From the NCBI GenBank assembly GCA_028687335.1, contig JAQUAI010000005.1, positions 49,972 to 113,971 on the forward strand: DNA of 64,000 bases, in the 5' to 3' direction. This document shows positions 560-54,560 of this stretch, piece by piece. How positions within the stretch are numbered: the first letter of the stretch is position 1; every line of letters begins with the position of its first letter. The notes beneath the pieces are model-generated. The model saw nothing but the letters and a program-made list of their open reading frames with translations, was not told the origin of the DNA and did not search any database. The DNA is from Gallionella sp. (GTDB taxonomy: Bacteria > Pseudomonadota > Gammaproteobacteria > Burkholderiales > Gallionellaceae). A program made the position numbers and the translations under genes.

Positions 560-691
560 TTATCGACTAATCGGCTTATATCGAATCCGCTTAGGCTTCG
601 CACCCTCTTCACCCAAACGCTTCTTCTTATCCGCTTCGTATTCCTGATAGTTGCCATCAAAGAACGTCCACTTGGAATCACCTTCGCAGGC
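560..691 (-). repeat. Orphan copy of the last 43 codons plus stop of ettA
   Basis: Translates ACEGDSKWTFFDGNYQEYEADKKKRLGEEGAKPKRIRYKPISR*. By hand count 15/132 nt differ from 4750-4881, with one amino acid change (K/R). Confidence 0.95.
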
Positions 692-4749: not shown

Positions 4750-6420
<1,671 letters not shown>

Positions 6421-23499: not shown

Positions 23500-24663
23500 A
23501 TGAGCGAATATTTTTTTACATCCGAATCCGTGTCCGAGGGCCATCCGGACAAGGTTGCAGACCAAATTTCTGATGCAATTCTGGATGCGATTCTAGCGCA
23601 AGACCCCTATGCACGGGTAGCCGCAGAGACATTGGTTACGACCGGGTTGACTGTGTTGGCGGGTGAGATTACCACCAGTGCCAATGTGAATTACGCCAAA
23701 GTGGCACGCGAAACCATTCGCCGTATTGGTTACGACGACCCTAGCTTGCGCTTCGATGCAGACGGTTGCTCGGTGCATGTTTGCTACGGTACGCAAAGCC
23801 CCGACATCGCCCAAGGCGTGGATCGCGCTTCTGATGACTACCTGAACCAAGGCGCGGGTGACCAAGGACTGATGTTCGGTTATGCCTGTACCGAAACGGA
23901 TACTTTGATGCCGTTGCCGATCTACCTGTCGCATCGCGTGGTCGAGCGCCAGTCACAATTGCGCCGCGATGGGCGTTTGAACTGGCTGCGTCCCGATGCC
24001 AAGTCACAAGTCACGATTAAATACGTCGATGGCAAGCCTCATTCCATTGATACCGTACTGATCTCCACTCAACACTCGCCGGACATCACACTGGAGCAAA
24101 TTCGTGAAGCTGCGATTGAAGAAATTATCAAGCCGGTGTTGCCGAAAGAACTGATCAAAGGCGACATCAAGTTTCTGGTGAATCCGACGGGCCGTTTTGT
24201 TATTGGCGGCCCACACGGTGACGCTGGCCTGACTGGCCGCAAGATCATCGTTGACACCTACGGCGGCGCAGCCCCGCATGGTGGCGGTGCGTTCTCCGGC
24301 AAGGATCCGTCCAAAGTTGACCGCTCTGCTGCTTACGCAGGGCGTTATGTAGCAAAAAACATCGTTGCTGCGGGTTTGGCCGACAAATGCTTGGTACAAA
24401 TTTCCTACGCTATTGGCGTTGCGCAACCTACCAGCATCATGGTCAGCACCTACGGCACAGGCAAAGTTTCCGACGAAAAAATCACCGAGCTGGTCAAACG
24501 CCACTTCGACTTGCGTCCGAAAGGTATTGTGCAGATGCTTGATCTGCTGCGTCCGATTTACCAAAAGAGCGCTGCTTACGGTCACTTCGGCCGCGAAGAA
24601 CCTGGCTTCACTTGGGAGAATACAGACAAGGCAGCGGCACTACGTGCCGATGCTGGGTTGTAA
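23500..24663 (+). CDS. metK: S-adenosylmethionine synthetase
   Basis: [19 protein letters not shown] and GGGAFSGKD. Confidence 0.99.
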
Positions 24664-24944
24664 GCGTAGCGAACAACCCATACGCCGAAAGGCGTACTTG
24701 TCTTTATTCGGGCGTAGGCTAACTTGCGTAGCAAGTTAAACCGCGTAGCGGTGGCCGAAGCCAAAATACCGGCAGCGGCACTACGTGCCGATGCTGGGTT
24801 GTAAGCGCAGCGAACAACCCATACGCCGAGAGGCGTACTTGTCTTTATTCGGGCGTAGGCTAACTTGCGCAGCAAGTTAAACCGCATAGCGGTGGCCGAA
24901 GCCCAAATGCCGGTATTGGTTACGTGCTGATGCTAGGTTGTGAG
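24630..24944 (+). repeat. 141-bp tandem repeat (2 full units plus a degenerate third start) containing the metK 3' end
   Basis: Units 24630-24770 and 24771-24911 differ at 6 positions; 24912-24944 is a decayed metK 3' end. Confidence 0.93.
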
Positions 24945-24963: not shown

Positions 24964-24990
24964 AAAACAGCCGCATAATGCGGCTGTTTT
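24964..24990. terminator. Intrinsic terminator
   Basis: AAAACAGCCGC-ATAAT-GCGGCTGTTTT. Confidence 0.85.
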
Positions 24991-25025
24991 CTTAATTGAA
25001 GAAAAAGTTTTTTGATAGTGTCTGC

Positions 25026-26255
25026 ATGCTAAAACGTATCTCCGTACAACAATTGCGCTTGGGAATGCATGTCCACGAATTTTGCGGTTCGTGGATGGAT
25101 CACCCGTTCTGGCGCACTTCGTTTCTGCTGGATAGCGAAAAAGATATGCAAGCTATTCTGGCGGCAAATATCAAAGAGGTCTGGATAGATACGGCCAAAG
25201 GTCTCGATGCGGAAGGCGGTGTAGCGGAGGCGGAAGTGGTGCAGAGCGTAGAGGCCACGCTGGCACAGGCCGCTTTGCCGGAGAAGAAAACGGTGCGTGC
25301 CGACATCGCACAAGAGGCGGTTCGTGCGGCGAAGGTTTGTGCCAAATCAAAACAAGCGGTTACTTCGATGTTTCACGAAGCGCGTATGGGAAAGGCGTTG
25401 AATGCCGATGATGCGCTACCTATCGTGGAAGAAATATCCAATTCGGTGATCCGTAATCCTGGTGCGCTAATCAGCTTGGCGCGCTTAAAGGATAAGGATG
25501 ATTACACGTATATGCACTCGGTGGCAGTGTGTGCGCTGATGGTGGCGCTTGCGCGACAACTGGATTTGAGTGATGAGCAGACGCGTTTGGCCGGCATGGC
25601 AGGCTTGTTGCATGACATCGGCAAAATGATGATTCCGCCGGAGATACTCAATAAGCCGGGCAAACTGACGGATGAGGAATTCGAGGTGGTTAAAAATCAC
25701 CCAGTTGAGGGACATAAATTGCTGCTGGAGGGGAGTGGCGTCAGCGATGTTGCCTTGGATGTTTGCTTGCATCACCACGAAAAGGTGAATGGCGGCGGTT
25801 ACCCAGAAGGACTGAGTGACGAACAGATCAGCTTGTTTGCCAAGATGGGTGCAGTTTGTGATGTGTATGATGCGATTACCTCCAATCGTCCTTATAAGAA
25901 TGGCTGGGAGCCCGCCGAGTCGTTGCGCAAAATGGCGGAATGGAGCAAGGGGCATTTCGATCAACGTGTCTTTGAAGCATTCGTGCGCAGCATTGGTATT
26001 TACCCGGTGGGTTCGCTGGTGCGTTTGGAATCGGGGCGCCTTGCCGTGGTAGTTGATCAGGGCGAAAAATCGTTGCTGGCTCCGGTGGTAAAAGTATTTT
26101 TTTCGACTAAGTCAAACAGTCGTATTTCTCCCGAAATCATCGATTTATCCAAGCCGATTGCGCGCGACAAAATCGTGTCGCATGAAGATCCCGCAAAATG
26201 GAATATTGGTGATGTGCAGGTGCTGTGGAGCGGCATTCCGGCCACTCCGTTCTAG
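25026..26255 (+). CDS. HD-GYP phosphodiesterase with DUF3391-type N-terminus
   Basis: YTYMHSV, LLHDIGK, HHEKVNGGGYP and DVYDAITSNRPY; probable start MLKRISV at 25026. Confidence 0.92.
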   Translation: MLKRISVQQLRLGMHVHEFCGSWMDHPFWRTSFLLDSEKDMQAILAANIKEVWIDTAKGLDAEGGVAEAEVVQSVEATLAQAALPEKKTVRADIAQEAVRAAKVCAKSKQAVTSMFHEARMGKALNADDALPIVEEISNSVIRNPGALISLARLKDKDDYTYMHSVAVCALMVALARQLDLSDEQTRLAGMAGLLHDIGKMMIPPEILNKPGKLTDEEFEVVKNHPVEGHKLLLEGSGVSDVALDVCLHHHEKVNGGGYPEGLSDEQISLFAKMGAVCDVYDAITSNRPYKNGWEPAESLRKMAEWSKGHFDQRVFEAFVRSIGIYPVGSLVRLESGRLAVVVDQGEKSLLAPVVKVFFSTKSNSRISPEIIDLSKPIARDKIVSHEDPAKWNIGDVQVLWSGIPATPF

Positions 26256-49636: not shown

Positions 49637-51639
49637 TGGACAAAAGCCAGCAAAGCCAGCAGCGTGACGAAGCTATACAGCAGATAAGCATGGATGCGCC
49701 CATGCTGCAATTTGCCTATCTGGTAGCCGATCATGTCATTGGCGCGTTTGATCGGGACGTAAATCAGATGCCACAGTCGGTCGTGTATTTCGGAATGAAA
49801 ATGCGGGTGCTTGTCGAACGGTGTTGGCGCTTTTCTAACCACGCCGACGAACCACTCAAAAATCTGGCGAATAGGCTGACCGAATCCCTCGGCGGTATCC
49901 TGCATGCGCGCGCTTTGTTCGGGGAATCCACAATCCCACGCGGGGCCGCGCCGCAAACGCCCGTGATAAAAACGCTTCACCGTGAGCATGGTGAGTAACA
50001 CGCCGATGACGATGATGCTCATCAAAATGAGTGGCCCATAGCTGGCGCGTTCGGCTTGAATCGGGGTGAGTAACAACCAGCCCGATTGCACGGCACTGCT
50101 TCCCAGTGAGCTTTGCACCAGCATATTGGTGACAAAATCGAGATGCAAAATGACAAAGGTGGGAAATAGTCCCAGCGCGATACAACCCAGCACCATGCAC
50201 AGCATACCGATGCGTTCCCATAGTCCAGCATCGTGTGCGGTGATACCGGCATCACGCGGTTGGCCGAGGAAAATGACCCCGTAAAATTTCACCATGACGA
50301 ATGCTGCTAGTGCGGCTGCCAGTGCCAGAGCCGCTGCGGCAATAGGAACCAACATATTGATATAGGGTTGCGGCAAGCCTGGCGAGAGCAAAAAAGCTTG
50401 CAGCATTAGCCATTCGGACACAAAACCATTCAGCGGCGGCAACCCTGCCAGAGCCAGCGAGCCGATCAGCATGAACAGCGCAACCTTGGGCATTTTGTGA
50501 ATCAGACCACCTAGTTTGCCGAGGTGACGCTCACCAGTAGCATGCAGGATTGAGCCTGTACCGAGGAACAGCAGCCCTTTCATAAACGCATGGTTGATGG
50601 CGTGATAAAGCGCGGCAGTGAGCGAGAGCGCAGCCAGAGCCTCTTTCCCAGATGTATGAAAAATAATGGTGAGGCCGATGCCGACCATGATGATGCCGAT
50701 GTTCTCAATTGACGAATACGCCAGCAGGCGTTTCATATCCACCTGCACAGCAGCGAAGATCACGCCGAACAAAGCGGTGACCAAGCCGAGCGCGAGGGCA
50801 AATGCTCCCCACCACCAGAGCTGAGTGCCCAGCAAATCAAAGCTCACCCGCAAAATGCCGTAGATTGCCGTCTTCAGCATGATGCCGCTCATCATCGCAG
50901 AAACGGGTGACGGTGCGGCGGGGTGGGCTTCGGGTAGCCACACATGCACGGGTAGCAAACCCGCTTTGGCACCGAAGCCGAACAGCGCCAGAAAAAACGC
51001 CACGCTCGCCCAAAAGTTGGACAAATTCGCTTCACGCATCGAGGCAAAAGAATAATCGCCGTGACCGCCGTGCATCACGCCAAACGACATCAAGATTGCA
51101 ATCGCGCCGACGTGAGCAATCAGCAAATAGAGAAATCCGGCTCGCCTAACCTCGGGCTGGTCGTGGTCGGTAGTGACTAAAAAGTAAGACGATAAAGCCA
51201 TCGCCTCCCAAGCCACCATAAACATATAAGCATCATCGGCGAGAAACACCAGTGCCATGCTGGCAAGAAATAGATGGTACTCAAGGCATAGTGGGCCGAG
51301 TTCGACCATCTTCATGTGGCGGAAATAGCCTGCGGAAAAGAGAGAGATACCGATGCTAGCGGCACCCAGTAGCAAGAGGAAGAATGCCGACAAGGCATCA
51401 AGACGCAGATGGAAAGGTAAATCGGGCAAACCGAGCGGCAGAATAGCAATATTCACTTCGCTCAGACCGGGCAGCGCGGCAATCGCCAAAACCAGTGAAC
51501 CTAGCGCGCCCAGCGGGAAAATAAATTGGGTGATTTGACGGGCGTTTCGCAACACGAGTCCGCTCATGCCAAGCACAAGCCAGAACACGACCACACCCAG
51601 AATGACATCAATGGGTAGTATGTCTAACGAAGCAAACAC
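49633..51639 (-). CDS. hyfB: HyfB-like antiporter subunit
   Basis: HVWLPEAHPAAPSPVSA, KRLLAYSSIEN, PPLNGFVSEW and WDCG. Confidence 0.9.
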
Positions 51640-53993: not shown

Positions 53994-54560
53994 ATGAGCA
54001 TCAAGTCAGACAAGTGGATACGCCGCATGTGCGAACAGCACGGCATGATCGAGCCTTTCGAGCCGAACCAAGTGAAGGAAGTGAACGGGCAGAAGATCGT
54101 GTCTTACGGCACATCGAGCTACGGTTACGACATCCGCTGCTCGCGCGAATTCAAGCTGTTCACCAACATCAACAGCACCATCGTCGATCCCAAGAACTTC
54201 GACCCGAGCTCCTTTGTGAACGTCGAGGCTGACTATTGCATCATCCCGCCCAATTCCTTCGCCTTGGCGCGTACCGTCGAATACTTCCGTATTCCGCGCA
54301 GCGTGCTGACCGTGTGCTTGGGTAAATCCACCTACGCGCGTTGCGGCATCATCGTCAACGTCACTCCGTTCGAACCTGAGTGGGAAGGCTATGTGACGTT
54401 GGAGTTCTCCAACACCACGCCGCTACCCGCCAAGATCTACGCCAATGAAGGCGTGGCGCAAGTGTTGTTCTTCGAGAGCGACGAAGTGTGCGAGACCTCT
54501 TACAAAGACCGTGGCGGCAAGTATCAAGGCCAGGTCGGTGTCACCCTGCCAAAGATCTAA
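53994..54560 (+). CDS. dcd: dCTP deaminase
   Basis: [25 protein letters not shown] and PEWEG. Confidence 0.97.

Follow-up and report, generated by a model that had tools for sequence, protein, structure and literature searches.

A probable array of gene-end cassettes behind metK in a Gallionella genome, and the family of structured DNA modules to which it belongs

In the Gallionella sp. genome studied here, metK, the gene of S-adenosylmethionine synthetase, is followed by a short tandem repeat that copies the end of the gene itself. The repeat lies in a stretch of 64,000 nucleotides (positions 49,972 to 113,971 of contig JAQUAI010000005.1, assembly GCA_028687335.1, forward strand), hereafter the window, to which the metK coordinates below refer. 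The genome (2.4 Mb, 31 contigs, 88.5% completeness) is labelled G000 and its relatives carry labels of the type Gxxx. Each 141-bp unit of the repeat is made of the final 34 bp of metK and of a 107-bp hairpin-rich element, and a decayed third metK tail comes after the units. In our judgement the repeat is probably a short array of 'gene-end cassettes', protein-less structured DNA elements of about 70-150 nt found across Betaproteobacteria. The features of the locus are the following, an arrow in a sequence marking a unit boundary.

23500..24663, + strand: metK (S-adenosylmethionine synthetase) coding sequence; open reading frame with three Pfam S-AdoMet_synt domains (E 1e-41 to 1e-69); its last 15 codons sit on the first unit.
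24617..24663, + strand: T1, the working tail of metK, which begins at the junction (G24616↓AGAA) and ends with the stop codon, the junction being placed by reference to 52 family members with G↓A(A/C)AA; the tail type matches G017 T2 (94%) and G020 T1 (89%).
24654..24680, + strand: hairpin around the metK stop codon, TGGGTTGT / ACAACCCA, with a GC-GTA-GC tip; inverted repeat 8/8, in the DNA and RNA minimum-energy folds.
24681..24696, + strand: mini-hairpin TACGCC-GAAA-GGCGTA; inverted repeat, in the DNA and RNA folds.
24697..24709, + strand: arm, complementary at 12/13 positions to the tail start 24618-24630, closing a four-way junction round the gene end; inverted repeat 92%, in the folds, 12/15 against a shuffled maximum of 11.
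24710..24762, + strand: module copy 1 (covariance-model match 24701-24772, 80.9 bits), consisting of the P1 5′ strand (24710-24719), HP1 (24720-24738), HP2 (24740-24752) and the P1 3′ strand GGCCGAAGCC (24753-24762).
24763..24805, + strand: second metK tail, beginning with AAAATACC, lacking 7 nt and thereafter an exact match to 24630-24664 (the last 34 bp and the base after the stop).
24806..24903, + strand: second element copy, 96% identical to unit 1, with the remainder of the stop hairpin, a GAGA mini-hairpin, the arm (24838-24850) and the module (24851-24903; covariance-model match 24842-24913, 75.5 bits).
24904..24944, + strand: third metK tail, decayed and non-coding, …GGTATTGGTTACGTGCTGATGCTAGGTTGTGAG, an 88% third copy and the oldest displaced ending.
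24968..24992, + strand: ordinary intrinsic terminator of metK (GC hairpin and T run; inverted repeat, sequence), 3′ of the array and outside the element.
24996..26255, + strand: downstream gene of the HD-GYP type (DUF3391 and HD_5 by domain search), given for context.

Tandem Repeats Finder reports 24630-24941 with a period of 141, 2.2 copies and 91% matches. A repeat search aligns 24630-24770 with 24771-24911 at 96% identity and returns a third copy of the 24-nt metK end at 24921-24944 (88%). The 141-bp unit described in the initial annotation of this DNA is thus borne out. The same holds for the complementarities which it had pointed out at the stop codon (TGGGTTGT with ACAACCCA, 8/8) and between GAATACAGACAAG (24618-24630) and CTTGTCTTTATTC (24697-24709; 12/13), for its four mini-hairpins, and for the six differences between units, four of them in hairpin loops and none in stems. 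As loops make up 13/141 positions, four of six differences would fall there by chance with P ~1e-3. A third pairing that it had listed, TGGCTTC with GAAGCCA, is present in the letters but fails in relatives, where the metK codons concerned vary independently; GAAGCC belongs to the 3′ strand of the conserved module, and the pairing was dropped as coincidental. With DNA parameters a 186-nt stretch folds at z = -7.3, and with RNA parameters at z = -5.3 (against 200 dinucleotide shuffles), into the branched shape previously described. In both folds the tail start 24618-24630 pairs with the arm 24697-24709, which leaves a four-way junction round the stop codon, and HP1 and HP2 follow. The complementarity of the metK arm to the tail start (12/15) also exceeds that of shuffled arms, whose best matches average 8.8 with a maximum of 11. 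The third tail (row G000_C15), when translated, keeps 2/15 positions of the metK tail peptide, with 2 synonymous and 12 non-synonymous codons.

The conserved part of the element is a module of about 55-75 nt, within a whole unit of about 70-150 nt. Its shared layout reads x′-TTKC-GGY-GNA-GGC-[HP1]-A-[HP2]-G-GCC-GNA-RCC↓AMAA-x, where HP1 and HP2 are the two hairpins of a three-way junction carried by the closing helix P1. This helix is formed by the module flanks (TTKC-GGY-GNA-GGC with GCC-GNA-RCC-AMAA) and contains a symmetric 3x3 GNA/GNA internal loop. A C.A mismatch stands in P1 exactly at the unit boundary, and 88 of the 96 distinct copies keep it. That the stems are conserved in homologues is indicated by covariation: in the model-fitted alignment of these 96 copies, 95.7% of cells are paired (81.8% in shuffles), and 20/22 module pairs change on both sides. 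The covariation score is 0.320 versus 0.115 for shuffled alignments, none of 500 shuffles reaches it, and slid partners stay at or below 0.05; an independent MAFFT alignment gives 0.248 versus 0.115. The junction tetranucleotide covaries with the arm, 40 copies having TTGC..ACAA and 38 having TTTC..AAAA, and a TAGC/ACTA variant is also seen. Reduced forms exist: a GAY-GAA-RTC mini-hairpin replaces the module at metK of G006, and arrays behind proB are without HP2.

A genome-wide search for the module found further copies behind other G000 genes: one between ftsW and murG, three in tandem behind smpB and two behind a ferritin-like gene. In relatives, modules lie behind metK, argF, acs, ftsW, glmS and genes of the nrdA type (CEACQ*), proB type (NLVLL*), dnaJ type and hypD type, as well as behind genes ending in FFGQ* and others. 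One single sequence variant matches more than 120 named betaproteobacterial assemblies, a lower bound counted among the matches listed; these include Gallionella, Sideroxydans, Ferriphaselus, Thiobacillus, Nitrosomonadaceae and Methylophilus, and also Rhodocyclaceae, Rhodoferax, Curvibacter, Ideonella and Propionivibrio. According to a covariance model based on 54 copies, the module occurs in 54/61 Gallionella genomes, with 0-27 copies per genome and zero copies in five genomes of at least 91% completeness. In the order as a whole, 51/150 genomes of at least 90% completeness, in 36/99 genera, are positive. Carriers include single-contig genomes and the isolate Ferriphaselus sp. R-1; the unpublished genome G085 is among the positives, and the tallies are independent of it. 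Neither 72,556 plasmids nor 50,697 phage records yielded a BLAST match to the element. Rfam, searched with permissive thresholds, returned for the window, as best overlapping match, COG2908 RNA with 15 bits against a gathering score of 58.7 (E = 1.9), and nothing at E <=1 for 18 further loci. As no published description of this element family was found in the literature searched, it is apparently a widespread betaproteobacterial family that has so far gone undescribed in print.

A second dispersed repeat family, of the type …GTCATTGCGAGCGAAGCG…CAATCCAG…, was noticed alongside the module at L166:4770-4990 (G050) and, in G000, at C11:43984-44300, C23:99226-99500 and C25:60982-61200; in L166 one of its copies has landed within the first hairpin of a module. 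Contig C11 of G000 also holds, at 54051-54190, three direct repeats of 36-37 nt with 66-bp spacing, resembling a very short CRISPR array.

This distribution bears on the plainest account of the metK repeat, namely a local tandem duplication of the native metK 3′ end or 3′ untranslated region (3′-UTR), or else an artefact of metagenome assembly. The assembly is in 31 contigs and 88.5% complete, and the two units are adjacent and 96% identical, all of which such an account would accommodate. Yet the module stands at three other G000 loci and in hundreds of independent assemblies, the six differences between units and the diverged third tail are unlike a collapsed or expanded repeat, and 9 of the 19 related metK loci retrieved are empty, with unrelated sequence downstream. 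We give this account almost no credence; as a full explanation plain duplication is refuted, and it is retained solely as a local duplication of the second unit. The suggestion of the initial annotation that a miniature structured element is involved is supported. Downstream of metK, the HD-GYP-type neighbour is also present in relatives whose metK site is empty. Many congeners (L010, L013, L014, L015, L017, L024) have metK followed by an apparent S-adenosylhomocysteine riboswitch and ahcY; with the HD-GYP-type gene standing next to metK in G000 and its nearest relatives, synteny 3′ of metK is not conserved in the genus.

The variable part of the unit follows a rule of its own. For 97 copies, the 12 nt upstream of TTK were taken as the arm and the best complementary site was sought within 200 nt upstream. 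The arm matches the start of the upstream tail at a mean of 11.8/15 positions, against 8.8 for shuffled arms and 7.8 for the downstream tail. The upstream tail is the better match in 85 of the 97 copies, equal in 12 and worse in none. Arms are thus tailored to the gene end of their own unit, which extends to the family the complementarity to the host gene first noticed at metK. The site paired by the arm is preceded by G in 48/52 cases and begins with A in 52/52, neither position having been scored; these frequencies define the motif G↓A(A/C)AA. The pairing is 10-14 nt long. It stays anchored at the unit start whatever the length of the tail, with arm-to-site distances of 31-197 nt; the arm is no remnant of a full inverted copy of the tail. 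At orthologous ftsW sites, arm and tail change in concert. The junction lies in codon phase 1 (GAM AAN: Glu/Asp, then Asn/Lys) in 45/48 copies and 16/19 distinct tail endings; this bias may reflect which targets have survived, namely those built on codon positions 1 and 2 of conserved residues.

Every module is followed by a further copy of the gene tail, starting at AMAA. Among 65 distinct tail pairs, 36 have a displaced tail that keeps the frame and the stop at the same position. These 36 pairs differ at 302/1353 nt, with 215 synonymous and 31 non-synonymous codon differences, when 23% synonymous would be expected by chance. Tail-pair divergence is bimodal: three pairs differ by 0-1% and the others by 9-44%, with a median of 24%. 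In-place decay could not leave tails coding at such divergence, and both members of a diverged pair would thus have evolved as working ends in different lineages. From these comparisons it would follow that the diverged pairs must have been brought together recently from different lineages. Because the displaced tails are synonymously diverged tails encoding the same peptide, the sequences indicate that the element arrives with its own gene end. The idea of the initial annotation that the element duplicates the gene end on insertion fails for most loci, where the displaced tails are not fresh copies.

The metK loci of relatives lead in the same direction. In G017, three metK tails encode the same 14-residue peptide and are 72-81% alike, and each has a 92-97% match in another genome at a different array position. 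Tail type A comes first in G017, G023 and G006, whereas in G004 it is second; type C serves as working tail in G019 and at the empty site of G016, yet is displaced in G017 and G006; the G000-type tail is second in G017 and G023. Arrays reach three tails in G017 and G006. Tail, stop hairpin and arm move jointly, and the module behind them is either full or reduced. Because the same tail types occur in different orders across genomes, the units appear, by this sequence comparison, to move with their own gene end in the manner of cassettes.

Two other tail duplications were seen in G000. The initial annotation had taken the metK repeat as an echo of a duplicated ettA tail (window 560-691 and 4757-4881, minus strand), but the ettA junctions, compared by eye, have neither module nor G↓AMAA, and the ettA duplication was rejected as the same element in favour of a different, larger insertion. 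There the 3′ end of ettA recurs 4.2 kb downstream, the mark of a separate, larger insertion system that likewise replaces a gene end. At C21:110560-110880, outside the window, the final ~90 bp of a small tautomerase-like gene are duplicated round a 45-bp spacer without module, and after these comes another copy, decayed, of its final 8 codons; the arrangement is again 'new tail, old tail', around a different insert.

Some insertions are without any matching tail. Units in which just a short hairpin separates AMAA from the arm occupy anticodon loops of tRNA-Phe and tRNA-Ser genes, as well as a T-loop-like site, with an intact tRNA copy adjoining; next to a tRNA-Leu fragment there is a tandem series of 71-nt 'empty' units. 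At such tRNA loci (L043:349-560, L189:1300-1900, L193:1300-1900), the tRNA is represented first by an orphan 5′ half that breaks off within the anticodon loop; then come a short-hairpin unit or several 'empty' units, and finally the intact tRNA gene. In G071 (L172:1270-1800), the gene affected is on the opposite strand and has the unit at its 5′ end; its first ~14 codons including the ATG are duplicated astride the module, so that heads can be replaced as well as tails. The disruptive solo insertions in tRNA loops and this unit at a 5′ gene end show that insertion is independent of a matching tail. Another unusual site is that of the hypD-type gene at L175:1270-1700 (G045). Its working tail has no stop of its own: the frame crosses the arm and ends at a TAG in the GCGTAGGC of the module. 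The displaced tail keeps the original ending and overlaps the start of the next gene.

The initial annotation had offered as an alternative a structured 3′-UTR RNA acting on metK mRNA. In such a model, the RNA would pair with the coding end and serve mRNA 3′-end stability, or couple termination to decay, and the tail copies would be by-products of its spread. The units are always co-oriented with the gene, the stop codon sits within a hairpin, the stretch folds stably as RNA (z = -5.3), stems are kept and loops changed between the two metK units, and arm and tail co-change at the ftsW sites; all of this is what an RNA would display. Helices selected as RNA tolerate G.U, not A.C. In the module, besides the conserved C.A (88/96), mismatches amount to 50 G.T versus 33 A.C cells, and in the arm/tail helix to 29 versus 26. 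There is thus no G.U excess over A.C in either helix, and a C.A mismatch is even conserved. Moreover, an RNA would hardly explain the copies placed in anticodon loops and T loops of tRNA genes or at an opposite-strand gene's 5′ end, the range of 0-27 copies within one genus with several genomes of at least 91% completeness having none, or the lack of any Rfam family match in the window and the 18 further loci. It also leaves the coding-competent displaced tails unexplained. We therefore regard a purely RNA-level origin as improbable. Three things favour an element acting at the DNA level: the symmetry of the wobble mismatches, the copies in tRNA loops and on the opposite strand, and the spread in copy number inside a single genus. 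Such an element may have a secondary effect on mRNA.

As regards the array of G000 itself, a small deletion is informative. The third tail, after AAATGCC, lacks the same 7 nt (AGACAAG) that the second tail lacks after AAAATACC; the second metK tail of G023 has the identical 7-nt gap, and the boundary of the 141-bp repeat falls precisely at the homologous gap point. In the simplest history, one old insertion would have left the decayed tail behind, and a later unequal crossing-over or slippage between the working and the decayed tail would have doubled the segment made of the right part of the tail, the element and the left part of the old tail. From the sequence, the second unit is thus better explained as a local unequal-crossover duplicate than as a second insertion. 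Six positions have come to differ between the two units since then, and four of these changes are transitions in hairpin loops. G017 and G023 would later have gained a type-A unit ahead of the G000-type unit.

How would such units move? On the sense strand a unit comprises, in this order, a replacement gene end starting from G↓A(A/C)AA, the region of the stop-codon hairpin, an arm complementary to the opening 10-14 nt of that same gene end, and the module; the previous, unused ending starts at the same AMAA behind the unit. Whole units would integrate at G↓AMAA in a site-specific reaction whose substrate is folded single-stranded DNA. As pairing of the arm with the start of the unit takes place next to the 3′ end of the module, the fold would join the unit ends and bring both flanks together at one point, a geometry that is that of an integron cassette circle or of an IS200/IS605 junction (IS, insertion sequence). 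New units would enter gene-proximally or at the module↓AMAA junction, so that old tails would pile up in arrays. In a new host, integration may be steered by the arm to the homologous gene, as old tails stay partly complementary to the arm (59% of cells paired, helix 1 of the MAFFT alignment). It is tempting to go one step further and to imagine the arm as a working guide, an enzyme reading the folded module while a 10-14 nt DNA-DNA pairing directs insertion at G↓AMAA of the matching gene; this we consider possible, if rather doubtful. With the same reserve, the enzyme could be host-encoded or still to be found, and the system would amount to a protein-less cargo with programmable single-strand integration which heals the gene it enters.

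Several observations weigh against such mobile units. No enzyme was found for the unit among the candidates of the Y1, Y2 and IntI types, whose presence was compared with module copy number in the 61 Gallionella genomes. The Y1 HUH domain (PF01797) does not track it, being absent from G055 (12 copies), G070 (11) and G012 (5) and present in G002, G009, G052, G069 and G075, which have zero copies. IntI (TIGR02249) is above cut-off in 33/61 genomes, again without tracking copy number: it is missing from G017 (19 copies, 100% complete), G018 (20) and G074 (21), and present in G002, G003 and G075, where copies number zero. At most there is a weak trend, 14/20 copy-rich versus 9/22 copy-poor genomes, which is not evidence, kin being non-independent. 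Y2 (PF04986) occurs in 19/61 genomes and is absent from most copy-rich ones, such as G071 (27 copies), G043, G045, G057 and G066. No excised circle, no strain pair with an empty and a filled site and no fresh insertion was seen; metagenomes, scanned twice for strain variation in the metK array, gave nothing the first time and the second time one degenerate single unit without old tail, which is uninformative. The G000 unit is 84% identical to its G017 counterpart, with 82% for the gene body, so that the pair looks vertically inherited and this unit type would be old in that clade. Three tail pairs are identical or nearly so and resemble a target duplication or a local tandem duplication. All units behind replaced gene ends are co-oriented with that end, as an RNA role predicts too. 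Finally, the ferritin-like locus of G000 (C10:17780-18200, L202, minus strand) has two modules set between three tails, in the order A, B and A′. The outer tails A and A′ agree in all but the last codon, B is recoded in 10/11 changeable codons, and the modules differ by 1 nt in 54. The import of foreign whole units alone cannot explain near-identical modules together with maximally recoded tails.

Two side observations concern integrons in these genomes. In G000, an IntI gene (TIGR02249 above cut-off) lies at C25:298-1239, at a contig edge and next to ruvAB. In G071, beside intI (L199:2100-12300), there is an integron-like array with ~65-nt attC-like repeats (…TAAGGGGCGCGCC…GGGTTAGG) and four copies of a cassette of at least 1.2 kb. 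A strict attC pattern gave no site beside intI in G071 and G045, two complete relatives, and the repeats there differ from the module.

A mechanism dispensing with a dedicated recombinase may also be envisaged. The module would stall replication, template switching or slippage would occur at AMAA microhomologies, and spread would rely on natural transformation and homologous recombination, in which either the gene body plus the old tail or the conserved module would provide the homology arms. Template switching would create inverted arms and direct tail copies, and hairpin-assisted slippage would precisely remove units, periodically reviving an old tail. That no candidate enzyme (Y1, IntI, Y2) follows copy number is as expected here. 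Tandem arrays of identical units are common (metK and smpB in G000, proB arrays) and identical tail pairs exist; such a mechanism would fit the tandem arrays and the ferritin-like locus better, near-identical modules with different tails pointing to the module as a portable homology. The folded unit, in addition, sets its two ends side by side, a geometry known to promote slippage between the direct repeats on either side, as happens when Tn5 and Tn10 excise precisely. On the other hand, tails as short as 18 nt (proB type) and of 70-80% identity are poor substrates of homologous recombination. The junctions are base-exact (G↓AMAA in 48/52), the solo insertions in tRNA loops have no flanking homology, and the sequence, mismatch and internal loop of the module are shared by different families of the order, which hints that a protein recognises it. 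We hold a mechanism without recombinase to be unlikely, and prefer gene-end cassettes integrating as folded single strands.

Among known systems, single-stranded recombination sites such as attC and CTX attP, to which the initial annotation had likened the element, are judged the closest mechanistic parallel. Like attC sites and integron cassettes, the units have a folded hairpin with an unpaired central loop and a mismatch, are stacked in arrays, and possess a variable terminal structure ranging from a triloop to a branched form. In both, the inverted arm matches the 5′ start of its own unit and not that of the next one (85 better, 12 equal and 0 worse of 97, as given above), and a match of the inverted arm to its own start is the classical argument for circular integron cassettes. 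The differences lie in the core, which is G↓TTRRRY in integrons (RYYYAAC / G↓TTRRRY) and RCC↓A(A/C)AA paired with TTKC-GGY in the unit, and in the context: integron arrays adjoin intI and attI and their cargo is a gene, whereas the present arrays are found inside the ends of housekeeping genes (metK, ftsW, smpB) and their cargo is a gene end.

Replacement of a gene end is also achieved by e14 and phage 21 in icd of E. coli and by islands in the 3′ ends of tRNA and tmRNA genes, the attP of which carries the replacement end. With these the unit shares a working end that is borne by the element and synonymously different, the old end being left downstream as a pseudo-tail. Elements of that type are kilobases long, with a tyrosine integrase and a defined att core, whereas the unit has a 5-nt motif and a variable sequence paired by the arm. 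The element proper is 107 nt here and similar in other copies, which leaves no room for an integrase or endonuclease gene, and the neighbouring genes are ordinary, with murG directly after the ftsW copy and the HD-GYP-type gene after the metK array.

In Torulaspora and Lachancea yeasts, integration of WHO elements at FBA1 is reported to replace the 3′ end of a housekeeping gene, and repeated homing to stack the displaced gene ends downstream (Coughlan et al., 2020, eLife, PMC7282813). The principle of a mobile element that replaces a gene 3′ end and stacks the old ends is therefore already in print (PMC7282813). Like a WHO element, the unit brings its own copy of the gene 3′ end and old ends cluster downstream; but WHO elements are kilobase-sized, eukaryotic and endowed with their own endonuclease cutting the sensitive allele (PMC7282813), when the unit is of 70-150 nt, without open reading frame, with a folded module and an arm directed at its own tail. 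The feature common to the WHO and e14 types, a working end that is element-borne and synonymously different with the old ends displaced downstream in clusters, is found in the present family.

The single-strand 'peel and paste' elements IS200/IS605 have protein-less relatives, the repetitive extragenic palindromes (REPs) and their REPIN pairs, with RAYT transposases (REP-associated tyrosine transposases); papers on these systems include PMC8266576, PMC3116915 and PMC6006769. The units resemble them in being protein-less and based on hairpins. IS200/IS605 elements insert beside a fixed tetra- or pentanucleotide without true target duplication, and an internal guide sequence by the hairpin pairs with the cleavage site over 4 nt; the G↓AMAA motif and the arm pairing of the present units may correspond to this, although the arm pairing is of 10-14 nt and of the other polarity. 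REPs are palindromes of 20-40 nt in hundreds of copies (usually >100), with a conserved GTAG at the hairpin's 5′ foot and a RAYT gene, in contrast with the 0-27 copies and the three-way-junction module of the present family, where the counterpart of GTAG is GNAG (N = C in 34, A in 27 and T in 18). One-ended rolling-circle elements of the IS91/IS801 type likewise have one fixed end at a target tetranucleotide and the other end variable. A variable end of this kind could explain the capture of 18-75 nt of adjacent gene, but IS91 ends have no arm complementary to the target. A classical MITE, with terminal inverted repeats that derive from a parent insertion sequence and an identical target-site duplication of fixed length, does not fit, the flanking tail copies being of 18-75 nt, variable and mostly 9-44% diverged, and no parent insertion sequence having been found. 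In all, REP/REPIN, MITE, integron cassette and IS91 each share one or two features with the family and each differ from it in at least one defining feature, as IS200/IS605 probably does too. Two further candidates were set aside on inspection by eye: a diversity-generating retroelement, considered in view of a repeat at the 3′ end of a gene, was rejected without a search for a reverse transcriptase, the tail differences being synonymous and of all base types and not adenine-specific, and a comparison with self-cleaving ribozyme cores (hammerhead, hairpin), made by eye only apart from the Rfam search, gave no match.

If the proposal is correct, the family would represent a widespread class of bacterial mobile DNA that is geneless and so far without description, and that seems to use base pairing with its target. 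Should the arm indeed act as a guide, its way of choosing a target would make a third logic, next to IS200/IS605 with their 4-nt guides and IS110 with its bridge RNAs. The family could also be useful as a possible source of new site-specific, sequence-programmable integration chemistry. Essential genes would be entered harmlessly thanks to a spare gene end, and the fossil stacks of earlier gene ends would record horizontal exchange between species. As no match was found in either the plasmid or the phage collection, the family would add a new case of short DNA that passes from one bacterium to another with neither plasmid nor phage. Annotators of genomes may take duplicated gene tails and mini-ORFs (open reading frames) behind housekeeping genes as footprints of such elements. 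The array behind metK and its relatives would also be a bacterial counterpart to the WHO/HO story of yeasts.

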